IMG/VR virus record: IMGVR_UViG_2740892429_000003
Strand: one strand, 5' to 3'
DNA length: 42,039 bases
DNA from: a virus
Lineage: Duplodnaviria; Heunggongvirae; Uroviricota; Caudoviricetes
Part shown: positions 2,401 through 33,873 of the stretch, one piece after another
Layout of the letters: each line of letters begins with the position of its first letter
How positions within the stretch are numbered: position 1 is the stretch's first letter
Position numbers and translations under genes: made by a program
The notes under the pieces: model-generated
Told to the model about the DNA's origin: nothing
Databases searched by the model: none
Seen by the model: only the letters and a program-made list of their open reading frames with translations

Positions 2401-3515
2401 TATGCAAGCCTCACAATATAGTTAAATGCGATGTTTTTGACGGTGTTTTCCGCGTTACCAGCAGCGTTAACGGTGATGGTGTGTCCATGTGAACCAATCG
2501 CAACAGAGTGCGTATGTGCACCAATAGCGACAGTATGTGTATGCGCCCCAGCACTTGCTGCAGTACCTGATACTGAGTGGGTATGCGCGCCAGCAGAATT
2601 CGTTGCACCTAAGTGAGTTTGAGCAGAGTTCGACGAAGCTACTCTACCGGAGCTAACGTTAGCATTATCCCCCTGAGATATCGGATGCGTATGTGCACCT
2701 GCTGAAGCTGCTGTTCCGCTAACGCTATGGGTATGCGCACCAGTGTTATTCGTAGATTTAGTTCCATAATCAAACGATGATGTGTTTTTTGTCCCTAAAT
2801 CTGTATTTGAAGCACTGGCGCTGTGGGTGTGCGATTTAATGCCGTCTTGTTCCTGGCTAAGAACATCACGTCCACTTGCAGGCTTACCTTTGATTGTCCA
2901 GCCACGCATATCAGGGATCACGCCTGACGGATAAGCGGCTGCAAGTTTCGGGTATGCAGACTTATCAAAAGTCTGTCCCTGCATCAGAGCATAACCAGAT
3001 GGAACTGTATCTGATGGCCACGGGATCGGGGCACCTACAGGAAAGGTCGAATTATTTTCCAAACCAAGATATTTAAGGACATCAGCAACAGAGCTTTTTG
3101 CCAAAATATCTCGCCCAACCTGTGTCAGGTCAGCCAAATTAGCGGTATCTTGATTGGTAAAATACGGTAATTTGTTTTCGGATGCTGAAAGATTAGCAAG
3201 TGCGGTAAGTATGGCATTAATTCTCTGATAGTTCTTATCTAATGCAGACGACATTTTTGCGATAAAGCCGGCCTGATCGCCATCGTCCTGTACATCCAGT
3301 CCACTTTCATTTGCTGTATATTGTGCCATTGCAGATGCAATAAAGCTGGCCTGCCGAATAACCTTATTGACTTGCGCACTGGATGCTTTCCCTGCTGTAA
3401 ATCCGGATAAAAGCGCAGGCAACGCTTCCCATTCCTCCTGCGACATAACATTGGCATTTTTACCCGTTGCGAATGCTTTAAAGTCATTTTTTGCCATCAG
3501 AGTAATACTCCCCAT
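2400..3515 (-). CDS. Tail fiber protein with C-terminal His-X-His repeat tip
   Basis: 371 aa; C-terminus with repeated [19 protein letters not shown] units and terminal [12 protein letters not shown]; position after baseplate genes. Confidence 0.75.
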
Positions 3516-4177
3516 GCCCCTACATCAAAACCACTGATAAATTCGTTATCCATATCAAAACCAAAAAATTTTGAGCCTTCCGATGGGGTTTCCACCGAAG
3601 GTGTTTCAATGCCCCCCGCCCATACCCCGGCGGCTTTTACTGTGAGATACCCCTGTTTAATTGCCGCAATTAACTCACGCGATACATCTGAAATATCAGT
3701 ATCAGGAAAGACCCAGACCGATATCGTCATGTCCTGGTTATCGACTATCTGCATTCGCAGCCCGGATCCTGCTGTTGCCGCGTCAAGAATTGCCGGAAGC
3801 GAATCATTCCGTCCGTCCCAGTTATTAATCGCAATCTTCGCTTTAAGAATGACACGATAAGTTTCATCGCGGAGATACATGTATCCAGAATCAGGATCAT
3901 ATGGCCCCTGCCATACACCCTGATCATATCCAAGCCCGTCGGTATCCCAGCTGAAATAGACACCTGAGATAAGCTGGCTGACAACACGGCTACGTCCGAT
4001 CCACAATCCCAGAATGTCAAGTTGCACACCAACCGCAGAGTCAATATCAAATGCAGTAATCAGCCCTCTGGTGGCCGCCGCAACATCAATAAGCGGCCGG
4101 GTCATCAGATCAACATGTGCAAGAAATTTAGGTTTGGTGGCGTGGTAGTTCGTGATTAGTTCGGTGTATTTGCTCAT
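3497..4177 (-). CDS. Baseplate/tail protein (Mu gp48 / P2 gpI-like)
   Basis: 226 aa; gene order between baseplate J-like and tail fiber. Confidence 0.55.
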
Positions 4178-24568: not shown

Positions 24569-24847
24569 CTTGTTAAATTTGTTAAAAAAGGAAGTTATTT
24601 AACATAATGTATGTTATAGGAACCACACGATCACCGCTCGCAATAGATTTGCGATGAAAGGCCTATTTAATCAACTTAAGTGGTCCAGAATGACGAAATT
24701 CGAGTGAATAAGAGGTGCATAAAAAAGGGCAAAAACTGCATAGCGTTTTTTCGCGACGAAAACCCTGTTTTATTAACTTTTACTGAGAATAGAGCATTAA
24801 AAAAGCCCCAATGATTTGGAGCTCTTCGTTGAGGTCAGAAATTCAAC

Positions 24848-25282
24848 TCATACCAGCGTAGCGCAGTTTTTGCGTAGCGCACTAATACTTTTTTCATCCC
24901 TTTGAATTTCGACCTCAGGATCCATCTGAAGGCTCACACCCAGCATGCAGAGACACCCCTCAATGAATCCCTCTGCTACCTGCAACTGCTGGCGGATAAA
25001 TCCTTCAGAACAGCGACGCCGCCGCCCTATCTCACGTTTGCTTAACCCGTAGACGTAGTACAGCATAATGACGTCCAGTTCCTCAGGCTTACGGACCTGC
25101 TGCAGCCGACAGACGCAAGCATCGATAATCAGGCCATCGTCGTCACAGCAACTCAGCCTGCCAGGCGAGCTGCTGACTACCAGCCCTTTAAATCCCGCCG
25201 CTATTGGAGCCCAGCTCACTGTGGTGTTGCTATCGGCAGCCCATCCACCCCAGCGCTCTAAAACCTGTTGAATATTACGCAT
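24848..25282 (-). CDS. Late-gene antiterminator Q-like protein
   Basis: 144 aa, Cys-rich (CCDDDGLIIDACVC), located immediately upstream of lysis cassette and its leader terminator. Confidence 0.6.
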   Translation of the reverse strand: MRNIQQVLERWGGWAADSNTTVSWAPIAAGFKGLVVSSSPGRLSCCDDDGLIIDACVCRLQQVRKPEELDVIMLYYVYGLSKREIGRRRRCSEGFIRQQLQVAEGFIEGCLCMLGVSLQMDPEVEIQRDEKSISALRKNCATLV

Positions 25283-25410
25283 AGCTCTGACCTCTACGTT
25301 TTGCTACGAAAAATTTTTCTGAGAACTACGTCTGTTTATCCGTGGGTGTGGATAACGCAGTTCCGATTCGCTTATTACACGCTGTTATGTGCAAAAAATT
25401 CCTTGTTCGG

Positions 25411-25593
25411 CCTGTACCAGCCTGTACCCACCTGTACCAGCTCTTTTCAAACCTTTTCCCCAAGCGACTTATATATATATATGGGGTTCTTAGTAATTAG
25501 GTTGGTACAGTTGGTACAGTTGGTACTGACCTTTAAATTCAATTAGTTAAAATGTACCAACCTCTATTTTGAAGCTGGTACAGGTTGGGACAC
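25411..25593. repeat. Iteron cluster / putative replication origin
   Basis: CCTGTACC x3 direct at 25411, 25421, 25431; (AT)6 at 25471..25482; inverted TTGGTACAG x3 at 25502..25528 plus degenerate and further copies to 25593. Confidence 0.65.
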
Positions 25594-27756
25594 CGCCTCA
25601 AAAATTCGAGTCATTTTTCCGTCAACACGACGTTGAACGCGCTTATACCCGCAATTTTGCAAAACATTACTAATTCGCATTTCTTCGCGTTTTCCGATGC
25701 GGTCAGGATTTAGCCCAATCGCATCACGCAAAACATCACTTGCGCGTAAAAATTCGCAATTTCGCGGAAGTTCATTAGTCATCAGGTCGGGCGTGTCGAG
25801 CCATTTCTCTACCGTTTCAAGCCAAGCATCCTTGATGGTGTACTGTTCATGGACACTCGCTGCCAGTTGTTCAGCCTCACGGAACTGGATACCCCCCAGA
25901 CGCTGAAACACCTCACGAGCCTCAGCCCAAAGTAAAAGGAGATCTCTTTTTATCGCTTTCACGTCGACTTTCGACACTTCCACGGGGAGCCAGCGACGGT
26001 TACCAGTCTTGTCCGCAAGGAATTCGTCCTCATTGGTGGTACCAACGAACACCAGGCGACGAGGAAACTGGGTGGCAAACTCCCGGTATTTCGGGATCCA
26101 GTTTTCGTGAGTACGCGTCACAAACGCTTTGATTGACTCCAGCTCTTTGGTATTAAGTCCGCGCAGTTCACCAATCTCTGCCACCAGCCGACCACGCATT
26201 TTTCGAGCGAGATCATCGTCTTTTTCGGCAAAAGAGATTTCAGTAAAAAACGCAGGATCAGGGCTCAGTGCCTCCACTCCGGAAGACTTACCGCAGCCCT
26301 GCGGACCAACGAGGATAGGCACCATATCCGCTTTGATGCCTGGCTCCAGTACTCGCCCCGCCAACGCGGTCCACATGTACATAGACACCGCACGGGTATA
26401 AGGCGTGTCGGCGGTACCGAAGTGCGTATGGTAGAAACATTCGATGCGCGGCACGCCATCCCACTCCAGTCCGTTCAGCCAGGTGATCGCTGAATCGAAT
26501 GGTTGTTCATCGGCTGCAAGTAACACCACATCGCGAATAAGTTCACGACCAACAGGTTTAAATCCCCGCTTTTCCATCGTGATGCGCAGGCGCGAATAAT
26601 CCGCATCGGTGAATGCCCGCCATTGTCCGGATCCTGCAGGGGCAAACATGATTTCGTCACGGAACTGGTCAAAGCGAATATCGATGTCCACAAAATCAGG
26701 GCGTACTACTGCTTTGGCTGCGTTGCTGATGGTTGCCTCGATACGCCCCCATTTATCACGCTCGAAAGCCGGCAGCGGTAAAGGTTCCGCCACTTCGGTG
26801 CAGGTCAGATCTTCGAAATCGTCGTTGCGGATCCCGATGGCATTAAGGAAATCTCCGTCATCACGATGCGCACAACTGGCATGCAGGCATTTAAAATGCC
26901 CCTGCTCAAAACCCGCGGTCCCCGCAGGAAAATAAACTGTGCTTGTCGGATCGCCCCCGCTACTGTGGCCGTCTTCAAACGGGCAGCGGATATATCGTTC
27001 ACCGTTTGCACCATCCAGCAGCGTCCAGCCATTGGCATCAAGATATTCAGCTGTATCATCCGTCGCGCCGGGCGTGAATGCTGAACGGTCGCGCATCTTC
27101 GTGTTGCCCGCTTCGGTGGTTACCGACACAGGGAGTTGTTCAGCCAGGCGCTGCCACAGCGTTTCAAGCTGCTCACCTGTAATAGCCGGAGGTTCATCCG
27201 GCAAACCACCGTCCCATTTAATACGCGCGCCGCTGCTGTGCGTACCACAGGCAACGAACTGCTGCCCGTTCGCCAGCAACTCGATAATGCCCATATCCCC
27301 CGCCAAGCGATGGATACGCTTACGGAAATCACCATCAACGGCCAGCAGATACAGACACTTATTACTGTTTGCTCGCCAGCGTCGCGGCGGCAACTCACCC
27401 AGAAGTTGCACAAGTGTTTTGCGAATATCTGCCTGAATGTCTTCATCTTCGCTATCGCAGTCCAGCGCCAGCCAGCCATGGCCTGTACGCACGCAGATGC
27501 CATAATCCGGTTCATTCGACCAGCGGGCAAAATCATGCTCAGTAACAACATGCCCGGTCCATTGAGCAATACCGGTGACCTGGCGGTCCCGGTTATAGCG
27601 ACTCGGCGTCTTACCCAGCGCTTTCAGTTTACTATCAGGGGATATGGTCGCACCGGGGTTACATACAACTGGCAGAAGATGATCAGTTCTCCCCAATACC
27701 AGGTCGAAATGAAACCACTCATCAGGCGTAGCTCCCCATGGTTTGCTATCGGACAT
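25564..27756 (-). CDS. Primase-helicase (PrimPol-like N-terminus, zinc motif, P4/VirE-type P-loop NTPase C-terminus)
   Basis: 730 aa; Walker A GPQGCGKSS; Cys/His cluster CPFEDGHSSGG...HFKCLHASCAH; ATG verified at 27754..27756. Confidence 0.8.
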   Translation of the reverse strand: MSDSKPWGATPDEWFHFDLVLGRTDHLLPVVCNPGATISPDSKLKALGKTPSRYNRDRQVTGIAQWTGHVVTEHDFARWSNEPDYGICVRTGHGWLALDCDSEDEDIQADIRKTLVQLLGELPPRRWRANSNKCLYLLAVDGDFRKRIHRLAGDMGIIELLANGQQFVACGTHSSGARIKWDGGLPDEPPAITGEQLETLWQRLAEQLPVSVTTEAGNTKMRDRSAFTPGATDDTAEYLDANGWTLLDGANGERYIRCPFEDGHSSGGDPTSTVYFPAGTAGFEQGHFKCLHASCAHRDDGDFLNAIGIRNDDFEDLTCTEVAEPLPLPAFERDKWGRIEATISNAAKAVVRPDFVDIDIRFDQFRDEIMFAPAGSGQWRAFTDADYSRLRITMEKRGFKPVGRELIRDVVLLAADEQPFDSAITWLNGLEWDGVPRIECFYHTHFGTADTPYTRAVSMYMWTALAGRVLEPGIKADMVPILVGPQGCGKSSGVEALSPDPAFFTEISFAEKDDDLARKMRGRLVAEIGELRGLNTKELESIKAFVTRTHENWIPKYREFATQFPRRLVFVGTTNEDEFLADKTGNRRWLPVEVSKVDVKAIKRDLLLLWAEAREVFQRLGGIQFREAEQLAASVHEQYTIKDAWLETVEKWLDTPDLMTNELPRNCEFLRASDVLRDAIGLNPDRIGKREEMRISNVLQNCGYKRVQRRVDGKMTRIFEAVSQPVPASK

Positions 27757-27759
27757 GGG

Positions 27760-27972
27760 TTAAGCCTTTTTATCGTTTTGTGAGCCATACAACAGCCAAT
27801 TAGGGTCGCAATCCAATGCGATAGACATTTCAAGAAGATAACGTGGCCGAGCAATAACACCACTTTCAATTCTGTTTATTGCCTGCTGGCTCACTCCTGT
27901 GAGCTCAGCCAACGTAACTTGCGTCATTTTGAGTTCTTTACGTCGTTCTTTTACTCGGGTCGCTAAGGTCAT
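27760..27972 (-). CDS. Cro-like HTH (XRE family) regulator
   Basis: 70 aa from ATG with GAGGTG SD (longest ORF begins at TTG 27990); HTH QVTLAELTGVSQQAINRIESG; divergent from CI-like gene. Confidence 0.7.
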   Translation of the reverse strand: MTLATRVKERRKELKMTQVTLAELTGVSQQAINRIESGVIARPRYLLEMSIALDCDPNWLLYGSQNDKKA

Positions 27973-28092
27973 TGCTTTCACCTCATACAATTTTAGTGGT
28001 ATTTAGCAACAACAAATGAGGTTTGTCAAATACAACAAAAATTGTTTTTAATGTGGGTATACACATTAATACAACCCAGAAGGACTAATCCC
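27973..28092. promoter_or_regulatory. Divergent promoter/operator region of the immunity switch
   Basis: AT-rich 120-bp spacer between divergently transcribed Cro-like and CI-like genes; individual operators not resolved. Confidence 0.5.
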
Positions 28093-28716: not shown

Positions 28717-29041
28717 TATTCCCACCGTAAATATCGGGAGGCGTAACAGCCTCCCTTACCCCATTTGTAAAGTCTTACAAATTAAATTCACTTAAATATC
28801 AATAAAGTAGTATTCACACCCCACAAAATACCACATTTGTGGTTTACACGATACAACTCAAATTGTATCTTTAACCACAAGTCGAACGGCGCGACTCTAA
28901 ACCATGCGTCGGGACCGTGGCGGGACAGGATGTCGGCAATACAGGTCAGTAAGTTCCCTTTGGGGTGCGGCGAAGCACTGTCTAATTAATACAAGTCGAA
29001 GCCGCCGAACCACCAAAGTGAACTGAATGAGGAATCACAAG

Positions 29042-29513: not shown

Positions 29514-30412
29514 GTTTAGAAACCAGTCTCGAACTTAATAATCAACTTCTGGCACAACATAATGCGCTGCTTGAACGTCTTATCCGCACAATGGCATCAG
29601 GTATTGTTATGCATCCTGACACGATTTCACGAGTGCAGGAATGTCGGGATACAGCAACTGAAGCTGAAAACATGTCAGCGGCAATGACACTGGATGATCT
29701 GGAGTTCAGCGACGTTATCGCACTGGCTGGTTTCTACCCGGTAGCCACCCCTATCACAGAAGACATGCTGCAACGTGCTGTTGCCTACCGTGATGCTGAA
29801 GGCGATAAACGAGTAGTTCAGATTGATGCTCTCGACAGCGCATTACAGGGCGTCAAACGAGCCAGGGCGCTGCTTAAACCTGCTCTCCTGGACCTGTCCC
29901 GTAACATTCTTAAGTTCTGGGACGACCTGCCAACCATCGGCGAGCGACGTGCTTTTGCCGAGCAGCTACTTGATGCACCTGCAGATGGGCGTGATGAAGT
30001 TAAGCCGAAAAAGGCCAGTAACAAAGATGGAGAACGCACGGGGCCGTTTTACGTCAAAAATGTATCCGGCACAGCAGCCAGTGAACTCCACACCTTACGC
30101 AAGTTGAACGAGATGCTTAAAAAAGGCCATATCGAGATCAACCGTGTTGAGTACCTTCAGCTGCAGGAAGAATTTGCACGCAGAGACGCAGCAAATTCCA
30201 GCCAGAATAATGACGCCAAAGATGACCATACAATTGATTTCGCGGCACTACGCAAACAAGCTGAAGGGTTGATCCTCCAGTTAGCAAAAGGGGGTTACCG
30301 GGCAGAAGCTATTGCAATTCTGGAAAAACAGGGAGCCAGGAAACTTGGTGAAGTAACGGATGAAAATCTCGCTGAAGTAATCACCCTGGCTGAAAAAGCA
30401 CTGGAGGGTTAA
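29510..30412 (+). CDS. Hypothetical early protein
   Basis: 300 aa, first large gene of the plus-strand early operon; no motif recognised. Confidence 0.5.
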
Positions 30413-32370: not shown

Positions 32371-33873
32371 GTGTCAACTTTGAGAATCGGTATGGAAATC
32401 CAAGAGTTTGTAAGTCACTATAAAAACCACCCTGTTCTATTCATTGGAACAGGATTTAGCCTACGGTATCTAGAAAACTCATTTAGCTGGGATGGTCTTC
32501 TTTTGAGTGTCGCAATGGAACTAACCGGTAATGCTGAGTTTTACTACGATTTGAAAGCTGAAAGCCTAGAAGGTGACGACTATCGATATGATATCTTAGC
32601 TACAAAACTTGAAGATATTTTTAATAAAAAGCTGGCAGAAGATCGTAACGGTAAGTTCAAAGACATCAATGATGTTTTCTATGAGCACATGAAAAAAGGG
32701 AAAAAACTAAGTCGATTCAAAATTTATTTAACTTCAATACTTAAAGACCTAAAGATAAAAGAGTCAATGATGGAGGAAATAAACAGCTTAATAAAAACAA
32801 GAAAAAACATAGGCTCCATCATTACAACAAACTACGACCAACTCGTAGAGAACATCTTCGAATTTAACCCACTGATTGGTAACAACATTCTTTTAAGTAA
32901 CCCATACGGTTCAGTTTACAAAATACATGGCTGTGTTAGTGATCCTAACAACATAATTATCACAGGTGAAGACTACGCAAACTTCGACAATAAATATGAG
33001 TTAATTCGCGCTCAATTACTCTCAATATTCATACACAACCCTATCATATTTATAGGGTATAGTATTAGCGATAAAAACATTAAGTACTTATTAAAAACCA
33101 TATTCTCATACGTTGACTTAAATACCGAACTTGCAAAAAGGATAAAAGATAATTTTCTTTTGGTTGAATACGAAAAAGACAGCATGTCAACTGAAATTAC
33201 GGAGCATGACATAGATATAGAAGGCATGTCTATCATAAGAATAAACAAAATAAAAACAAACAATTACAAAGCTGTATATGATGCCATCTCGGGACTAGTT
33301 TTGCCAGTATCCGCAATGGACATAAGAAAGGTTCAAAAAGTTTGGAGTACCATCAAAAGTGGTGGTGAGATAAAGGTTAAAATTACAGAAAATTTAGATG
33401 AACTTCGCAATGATGAAATGGTCATTGCTGTTGGTTCAGAAAGAACCGTACAATATGTTTATCAAACAAAATCTGAAATGATACAGAACTATTTTAAAAT
33501 AGTTGACGAAGCAAACTCTCAGCTTATCGCATTACTGAATAAGCAAACTATAGCTAATAGCGAACACTTTCCAATATACGCTTTTAGTTCTATCTGCCCT
33601 GAACTAGAAAATACCGAGACATACAGAAAACGGCAGCTAGATAAAATCATTGGTAACCTTTCTCGAATTAAAACATGTAAGAGTGATGCTGTGTCTATTG
33701 ATGAAATACTAAAAGAAACGAAAGAGTATAAAGTTGCTAACACGATTATGTATTGCGTACTAAACGATACTATTTCATTGAAACAACTACGAGATTATTT
33801 AACAAAACCAGGGCATAAAATTGATACCCAATACAGGCGACTTTTATGCTTGTATGATTATTTATCATATTAA
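32371..33873 (+). CDS. SIR2-family (SIR2_2 / ThsA-like NADase motif) protein with uncharacterised C-terminal domain; candidate single-gene defence cargo
   Basis: 500 aa; GTG start with GAGG SD; motifs GTGFS (26-30), TTNYD (152-156), KIHG (184-187), FIGYS (227-231); very low GC; flanked by hairpins 32295..32315 and 33899..33921. Confidence 0.8.
   Translation: MSTLRIGMEIQEFVSHYKNHPVLFIGTGFSLRYLENSFSWDGLLLSVAMELTGNAEFYYDLKAESLEGDDYRYDILATKLEDIFNKKLAEDRNGKFKDINDVFYEHMKKGKKLSRFKIYLTSILKDLKIKESMMEEINSLIKTRKNIGSIITTNYDQLVENIFEFNPLIGNNILLSNPYGSVYKIHGCVSDPNNIIITGEDYANFDNKYELIRAQLLSIFIHNPIIFIGYSISDKNIKYLLKTIFSYVDLNTELAKRIKDNFLLVEYEKDSMSTEITEHDIDIEGMSIIRINKIKTNNYKAVYDAISGLVLPVSAMDIRKVQKVWSTIKSGGEIKVKITENLDELRNDEMVIAVGSERTVQYVYQTKSEMIQNYFKIVDEANSQLIALLNKQTIANSEHFPIYAFSSICPELENTETYRKRQLDKIIGNLSRIKTCKSDAVSIDEILKETKEYKVANTIMYCVLNDTISLKQLRDYLTKPGHKIDTQYRRLLCLYDYLSY

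Follow-up and report, generated by a model that had tools for sequence, protein, structure and literature searches.

The stretch of DNA analysed here, hereafter the window, comprises 42,039 nucleotides of a virus of the class Caudoviricetes (IMG/VR virus record IMGVR_UViG_2740892429_000003) and is almost wholly one Escherichia coli prophage, 100% identical to strain 21KM1392 (NZ_CP151067). On its minus strand, a Cro-like helix-turn-helix (HTH) gene is followed by a gene annotated as 'VapE domain', whose 730-aa product we call the primase-helicase, by a 281-bp intergenic region and by the antiterminator gene Q (Table 1). A cluster of short repeats based on the hexamer TGTACC begins within the last primase codons and extends into the intergenic region, with nine copies between 25413 and 25592, seven of them exact and two with one mismatch. 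A first-pass annotation, made from the sequence alone, had read these repeats as the iterons of a replication origin served by the adjacent primase-helicase, or else as operators, within the promoter region of Q, that couple replication to late expression. Here we weigh these and other readings against the sequence of the window and of related phages.

The TGTACC cluster is the densest 6-mer cluster of the 42-kb window. The window holds 25 exact TGTACC/GGTACA matches, and seven of these fall within 170 nt (Poisson probability of such clustering by chance ~7e-11, corrected for all 170-nt windows), while no other 6-mer, apart from those made solely of A/T, occurs more than four times within 170 nt anywhere in the window. 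Three copies of CCTGTACC at 25411, 25421 and 25431, with 10-bp spacing, and an (AT)6 tract at 25471-25482 are present as first described. From the three inverted copies described at 9-bp spacing, two stand unaltered (TTGGTACAG at 25502 and 25511), and the third, at 25520, reads TTGGTACTG with one mismatch. The 'degenerate copy' at 25529-25537 (ACCTTTAAA) and the copy at 25562-25569 (CTCTATTT) are not copies; the real copies near the stop codon lie at 25553, 25577 and 25587. Within the scanned interval 25400-25560, the least stable 40-nt span is 25468-25508, which reaches across the (AT)6 tract to the edge of the array and belongs to the top 0.6% least stable spans in the window.

Table 1. Features of the repeat region and of its immediate neighbours, with positions in the window.
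Feature	Position	Strand	Description
Q antiterminator gene	24848..25282	-	Pfam PF06530, E 1e-50; downstream neighbour of the repeats
Leader upstream of Q	25283..25410	-	Lies outside the variable cassette; prophage MS20659, with different iterons, has it at 100% identity
Iteron array farthest from the primase gene	25411..25440	+	Three units, 10-bp spacing (CCTGTACCAG, CCTGTACCCA, CCTGTACCAG); inverted relative to the nearer array
AT-rich centre, 61 bp	25441..25501		GC 34%; (AT)6 tract with CCCC (25458-25461) and GGGG (25483-25486) on either side
Iteron array nearest the primase gene	25502..25528	-	Three 9-bp units (TTGGTACAG, TTGGTACAG, TTGGTACTG); position and spacing conserved in every family
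Iteron group at the primase stop codon	25553..25592		TGTACC 25553-25558 (+), GGTACA 25577-25582, one-mismatch GGGACA 25587-25592; positions occupied in all families
Candidate initiator gene, 730 aa	25564..27756	-	Prim-Pol primase (archaeo-eukaryotic type, N-terminal), zinc-binding linker, VapE-type superfamily-3 helicase, C-terminal winged-helix-like domain
Predicted winged-helix domain, residues 644-721	25594..25827	-	Helices 644-653, 672-680 and 689-701, then wing hairpin 704-711 / 714-721
Wing residues M715-T-R-I-F719 (wing strand beta3, after the GK turn)	25600..25614	-	Sole protein segment co-varying with the iteron sequence
Cro-like HTH gene	27990..27760	-	Upstream neighbour of the primase-helicase gene

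The same arrangement recurs in 86 of the 86 sequences compared, namely the window, E. coli prophages, 80 fetched IMG/VR loci and Yersinia phage YeP4 (78 tabulated first, eight loci added): at the stop codon two forward iterons and an inverted one, next an array of three forward iterons spaced by 9 bp, then the centre and lastly three inverted iterons. The sequence of the AT-rich centre is conserved across the iteron families and reads ..ACTAAgAACCCCATATATATATATAAGTCG..GGGAAAGGTTA... Among the E. coli prophages, the flanks, the centre and the spacers are kept while all repeat copies change together, giving TGTACC iterons in the window and FDAARGOS_144, GGAACC iterons (of the form TGGAACCAC) in MS20659, ECE170 and OkiPb01688, and GTTACC iterons in A34 and RIVM_C036204. 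The primases of these relatives are 95-99% identical to that of the window over residues 1-705 and differ only after this point. At the DNA level, identity to MS20659 is 94-100% along the primase gene to about nt 2100, 57-69% over the ~300 nt that comprise the last ~17 codons and the putative origin, and 100% for ~500 nt beyond it (98% in the last bin compared). That the cluster is a functionless chance or slippage repeat can hardly be entertained, since nothing speaks for it beyond the shortness of the core motif and it is contradicted by the corrected probability given above, by the conservation of positions, spacing and orientation over eight families in hosts from Enterobacterales to Caulobacter, and by the joint change of all copies between conserved spacers.

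The protein encoded next to the repeats has a recognisable architecture. Pfam assigns VapE (PF05272, E 2e-60) to the 730-aa protein and, in a search of its N-terminal 330 residues, Prim-Pol (PF09250) to residues 53-185 (E 3.6e-10, above the curated cut-off). The sole solved relative by sequence is 7PDS, the Rep protein of the Staphylococcus aureus pathogenicity island (SaPI) SaPI1 bound to DNA (PMC9371898), which matches residues 386-657 (phmmer E 7.5e-34); 7PDS is also the best Foldseek match of the full-length AlphaFold2 model (E 1.9e-22, 447 columns on the 451-residue chain). In this model the C-terminal region is predicted to adopt a helix-helix-helix-strand-strand topology, that of a winged helix, with mean predicted local distance difference test (pLDDT) scores of 74-86 in the 10-residue blocks of residues 651-720. 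A homologue search with the C-terminal 148 aa returned 26 fragmentary proteins, which were of little use for modelling and served as a source of new wing variants.

The iteron cores of the compared sequences form eight families, each paired with one class of wing, defined by the five residues after the GK turn: MTRIF occurs with TGTACC, KMRIF with TGTCCC, K[CS]K[VI]W with GGAACC, [LS]MKVW with GTTACC, VQRVW with GTAACC, VLKVW with GTATCC, QIRVW with AGACCAC and QQR[IV]F with AGACAAC. Eleven wing spellings map onto the eight families with no exception in the 78 tabulated sequences (adjusted mutual information, AMI, 0.90), and the eight further loci fit too, adding QQRVF as a twelfth spelling. 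The eight residues before GK recombine freely, KRAQRRIG and KRVQRRVD each being found with MTRIF and with K[CS]KVW, and the peptide after beta3 is of variable length and partly encoded by the iterons themselves, with MTRIFEPV and MTRIFEAVSQPVPASK having the same iterons.

Since many genes differ between the window and MS20659, the two are no clean near-isogenic pair; a whole-prophage comparison between them was dropped and replaced by a tile-by-tile scan, over ±10 kb in 73 loci, for association with the iteron family (AMI). Association peaks solely at 25320-25640, with values of 0.45-0.79. It is 0.15-0.27 inside the primase gene, 0.01 and 0.16 in tiles 25200 and 25260 (the 5' end of Q and its leader), 0.02-0.19 in the immunity region and 0.14-0.29 in the tiles of the small terminase (TerS) gene. 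Two isolated tiles, 28860-28980 and 29520-29640, show association of 0.43 and 0.53 in 25-27 loci only, with neighbouring tiles at background, which probably reflects population structure.

These values bear on the idea that the repeats are operators through which Cro, CI or Q controls read-through or initiation into Q and the late operon. The early operon and Q do flank the cluster on the same strand, and one of its inverted iteron pairs forms a terminator-like hairpin. However, prophages with TGTACC iterons and prophages with GGAACC iterons encode one and the same Q protein (WP_001244503), and Q is therefore not functionally tied to the repeats. One Cro C-terminal type is found with all eight iteron families (9/10 tabulated wing spellings), the wing MTRIF is found with several unrelated Cro types, and OkiPb01688 has Cro and CI proteins unlike those of MS20659, yet the same iterons. 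Together with the low association of the immunity region, the lack of any sigma-70-like minus-strand promoter in a promoter scan of the intergenic region, and the occurrence of the same layout in Yersinia phage YeP4 and Caulobacter phage Jess A, in which the gene downstream of the putative origin is not Q, these observations make operators very unlikely. The coupling of replication to Q proposed in the first-pass annotation thus finds no support, in that the repeats accompany the primase gene also where the next gene is another than Q, and neither does its view of the region as the promoter region of Q. It is more unlikely still that the small terminase or the integrase recognises the cluster as a site of packaging (pac) or of recombination. 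Some pac sites have repeated short motifs, and the terminase genes are situated 2.3 kb downstream of the cluster, but the same small terminase (WP_000162796) is present in prophages of three iteron families, the association of the TerS tiles stays at the level given above, and the integrase and attachment site lie at the far end of the prophage, by yfhL.

The pairing of wing and iteron also extends to sequences outside the initial comparison. When aligned as 9-bp units, the iterons of F-type wings end in ..CAAC and those of W-type wings in ..CCAC. Fragments with previously unseen wing sequences were fetched and three outcomes predicted beforehand, all of which held: MTRIW (L089) is accompanied by TGTACCCAC, which, compared with MTRIF and TGTACCAAC in the window, constitutes a natural one-residue, one-base swap; KAKVW from Sodalis (L091) is accompanied by GGAACCACC; and KMRVF (L093) by TGTCCCAAC. 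Two unpredicted wings, QQRVY with TGACAAC and QTRVF with AAGACAACC, fit the pattern of F or Y with A, and in the five test loci base 7 is A where wing position +5 is F or Y, and C where it is W. Among more distant relatives, a protein 45% identical to that of the window over this region, with the wing SVWGF, is followed by GTTCCTCTT iterons in the same layout; in Jess A (protein 46% identical) the layout is kept with TGTAACCA iterons; and YeP4, whose GenBank entry describes it as a Yersinia phage and names a propagation host, has the same layout after the homologous gene. Hamiltonella phage APSE-1 (L096, NC_000935, ~3290-3700) likewise carries the layout after its P3 helicase gene, with GTAACAACC iterons and an (AT)n centre. 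A further iteron group is found ~250 nt downstream in APSE-1, followed by P4 and a Q-like gene.

The closest known systems are those of the SaPIs and other phage-inducible chromosomal islands (PICIs). SaPI Reps are self-loading initiator helicases whose C-terminal winged helix binds 5-6-nt iterons directly after rep; these iterons are divided equally between the two flanks of an AT-rich centre, one half inverted relative to the other, and in SaPI5 primase and Rep are fused (PMC9371898, PMC7581432). E. coli PICIs (such as EcCICFT073) have the same layout, and the pri-rep-ori fragment of one of them replicates autonomously (PMC6092414). The window shares with these elements a homologous helicase core (7PDS, E 7.5e-34), a primase-helicase fusion as in SaPI5, repeats directly after the gene (stop codon 25564-25566, iterons from 25592 down to 25411), oppositely oriented sets of short iterons (3 + 3) flanking the 61-bp AT-rich centre, and a C-terminal iteron specificity that differs between elements (PMC9371898, PMC6092414 and PMC7581432 for SaPIs and PICIs; computational for the group of the window). 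It differs from them in that the system is carried not by a satellite island but by a complete tailed temperate phage of ~40 kb, which brings structural genes and a DNA polymerase of its own, that the iterons are 9-10 bp long with constant and variable halves and are joined by an extra three-iteron group over the stop codon, and that specificity maps to five wing-strand residues, with at least eight types in phages otherwise near-identical over the primase gene. That the prophage is itself a phage-inducible chromosomal island, a small satellite dependent on a helper phage, was rejected, as it encodes its own virion, lysis genes and DNA polymerase.

The homology to SaPI1 Rep, the identical origin layout and the co-variation between iterons and C-terminal wing (86 sequences plus the new test cases) uphold the earlier reading of an iteron origin served by the adjacent primase-helicase. 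We consider it very likely that 25411-25592 is the replication origin of the prophage and that the primase-helicase, encoded just upstream (minus strand, 27756..25564), acts as its initiator, and sequence comparison gives good support to the proposal that a complete phage here carries an origin of the SaPI/PICI Rep-ori type.

An alternative is that the primase-helicase binds the iterons only for autoregulation, or as a roadblock that gates transcription into Q, and that replication begins elsewhere. Co-variation as such proves a cognate pair only and not origin activity, the hairpin at the stop codon resembles a terminator, and in phage P4 the alpha-binding repeats directly after the gene (crr) can differ from ori. 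Unlike P4, the 42-kb window holds no second iteron cluster; in the homologous SaPI/PICI systems, inverted arrays around a conserved, easily melted AT-rich centre are what marks an origin; and neither the GGAACC nor the AGACCAC family has the T-run that follows the hairpin. We regard such a purely regulatory role as unlikely.

P4 had been offered as the precedent for the window and serves as an analogy only. Both P4 alpha and the window protein join primase, helicase and a C-terminal origin-binding function (predicted here) in one polypeptide, and both are followed directly by repeats in both orientations, which in P4 crr are of eight bp. There is, however, no sequence similarity between the two proteins (BLASTP E 0.7); P4 alpha consists of zinc ribbon, Toprim, D5_N and Pox_D5 domains as against Prim-Pol and VapE; and P4 needs two separate cis sites, ori and crr, which share the type I repeat TGTTCACC and of which crr, not ori, directly follows alpha, whereas the window has a single cluster with another motif. 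Cch2 of SCCmec, a helicase of the self-loading type, binds direct repeats just after its own gene, which are its preferred priming site (PMC7581432). The window resembles it in having a predicted helicase binding site directly after the gene; Cch2 differs in being of the D5_N/Primase_Cterm type with a separate primase-polymerase and only three iterons, and its replication in cells is undemonstrated. By description, ORF904 of the archaeal plasmid pRN1 also unites Prim-Pol, superfamily-3 helicase and winged helix, and sequence downstream of its gene is required for replication, although that origin is described as a stem-loop region and not as inverted iteron arrays. The lambda-type origin provides a parallel in that initiator specificity and iterons co-vary among related phages as a swappable module; its iterons, however, are ~19 bp long and lie inside gene O, and O is no helicase and needs P and host DnaB, while the annotation of the window contains no O or P homologues.

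Several observations weigh against the proposed origin and its wing-read specificity. GC and AT skew track the direction of transcription and carry no information on an origin. No Pfam or PDB sequence match was obtained for residues 643-730, and in a PDB profile search with the C-terminal alignment the match to 7PDS ends where the winged helix begins; the AlphaFold2 model of the C-terminal domain by itself is of poor confidence (pLDDT 58) and gave no significant Foldseek match (best E 0.5), although several of its top matches are winged-helix proteins. The winged-helix assignment therefore comes from the full-length model. The VLKVW loci carry a mixture of GTATCC and GTAACC iterons. APSE-1, with the wing VCRVW and a recognition helix that is also different, has TGTAACAAC iterons, so that its W stands with CAAC; this breaks the rule that W goes with C and excludes F/W to A/C as a universal code. 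Finally, no more than 8-300 nt separate the wing codons from the iterons, and physical linkage therefore contributes to the co-variation; breakpoints directly on both sides of the cassette weigh against this.

We propose the following model for the origin. Binding, melting, self-loading and origin activity are inferred from the arrangement of the repeats, from homology and domain prediction, and from the co-variation. Upon induction, early transcription would yield the Prim-Pol/VapE-helicase fusion protein, whose C-terminal winged-helix domain would bind the 9-10-bp iterons, with the conserved helix 689-701 probably reading the constant iteron half (CCAAC) and wing strand beta3 (M715-F719) probably reading the variable half (TGTA). 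The two inverted three-iteron arrays would then seat two oligomers of opposite orientation, one at each edge of the 61-bp AT-rich centre, where the (AT)6 tract, as the proposed site of strand opening, would melt, allowing the helicase to load itself and the Prim-Pol domain to prime. The primers would be extended by the family-A DNA polymerase of the phage and accessory proteins from the rightward operon, and the three extra iterons at the stop codon may act as auxiliary binding sites and, as RNA, as a weak terminator-like hairpin. More tentatively, and with somewhat more doubt than belief, we suggest that the last ~17 primase codons and the origin form a ~300-bp swappable specificity cassette with a simple sequence-readable code, in which beta3 residues 1-2 would specify the variable five iteron bases and residue 5 would specify base 7 (F/Y: A, W: C), and that at least 8-10 orthogonal initiator-origin pairs circulate in phages near-identical over the primase gene.

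The iterons at the stop codon overlap the coding sequence. The primase stop codon TAG (25564-25566) stands between TGTACC 25553 and GGTACA 25577, which together form a 12-bp inverted repeat, and GGTACA 25577 and GGGACA 25587 lie inside the final 10 primase codons. The last nine of these codons (25567-25593, VSQPVPASK) are spelled by the iterons themselves, and the same iterons are non-coding in families whose stop codon comes earlier; the C-terminal peptide of the primase is thus a by-product of the putative origin sequence. In RNA of the minus strand, the inverted pair is predicted to fold into a 12-bp hairpin (-20.8 kcal/mol, z -3.4) followed by UUUUAAC, which may serve as a weak terminator of primase transcripts. 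Because two of the families (GGAACC and AGACCAC) lack this T-run, the role of the hairpin would be auxiliary at most.

Other signals near the repeats were also considered. The only perfect DnaA box of the 42-kb window (TGTGGATAA) lies at 25347-25355 in the Q leader, 56 nt from the distal iteron array, and belongs to a TTATCC..GGATAA inverted pair. As the box is degraded in several relatives, A34 and RIVM among them, it is unlikely to be a core element, and we do not count it as a defining part of the origin. A scan of 24700-26000 against Rfam yielded one sub-threshold small RNA match in or near Q, which is irrelevant here. In OkiPb01688 (L003), a 137-bp tandem duplication of the core origin at ~2871-3007, comprising the inverted array, the AT centre and the direct array, produces two complete origin cores.

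The remainder of the window is consistent with a complete temperate phage. Downstream of Q on the minus strand are lysis, terminase, head and contractile-tail genes, and the virion, lysis and replication set encoded in the window includes terminase, portal, capsid, sheath, tube, baseplate, holin, endolysin and DNA polymerase. Rightward, a gene for a LexA-like CI repressor is followed by a replication operon with DUF2800, DUF2815, an inserted SIR2 gene, family-A DNA polymerase, VRR-NUC and a DEAD-box helicase. The prophage insertion site adjoins yfhL. The SIR2-family gene (32371-33873), located between DUF2815 and the DNA polymerase, has a low GC content (0.33-0.40) and is likely to be defence cargo; the segment is carried by only 4/73 related loci, and MS20659 has another gene in that slot. 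At the left end of the window, positions 1-2000 form a low-GC segment (0.36-0.38) with open reading frames at 330-977 and 1272-1817, and this segment probably lies at the tail-fibre end of the prophage or past it.

Our analysis places a likely origin and its initiator in a widespread, uncharacterised group of temperate phages, with members among the prophages of E. coli, Salmonella and Enterobacter, the Yersinia phages YeP4-6, the APSE phages of aphid symbionts and the Caulobacter phages. No published origin for these phages was found in the literature searched, which does not prove that none exists. The presence of the Rep-ori type in complete phages would mean that it is not confined to satellites, and what the analysis adds is the sharply bounded specificity cassette together with an apparent wing-to-iteron code. 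As the initiators form a natural series that is near-identical over the first ~705 residues and differs in a few wing residues and in the iterons, they offer a ready-made system for studying how the wing of a winged helix reads DNA, and might supply mutually orthogonal replicons for use in E. coli. If the cassette and its code are real, they would point to diversifying selection on origin identity, for which cross-activation by co-resident relatives, hijacking by satellites, or origin-directed nucleases such as those described for ICP1 and PLE (PMC8263062) are possible pressures.

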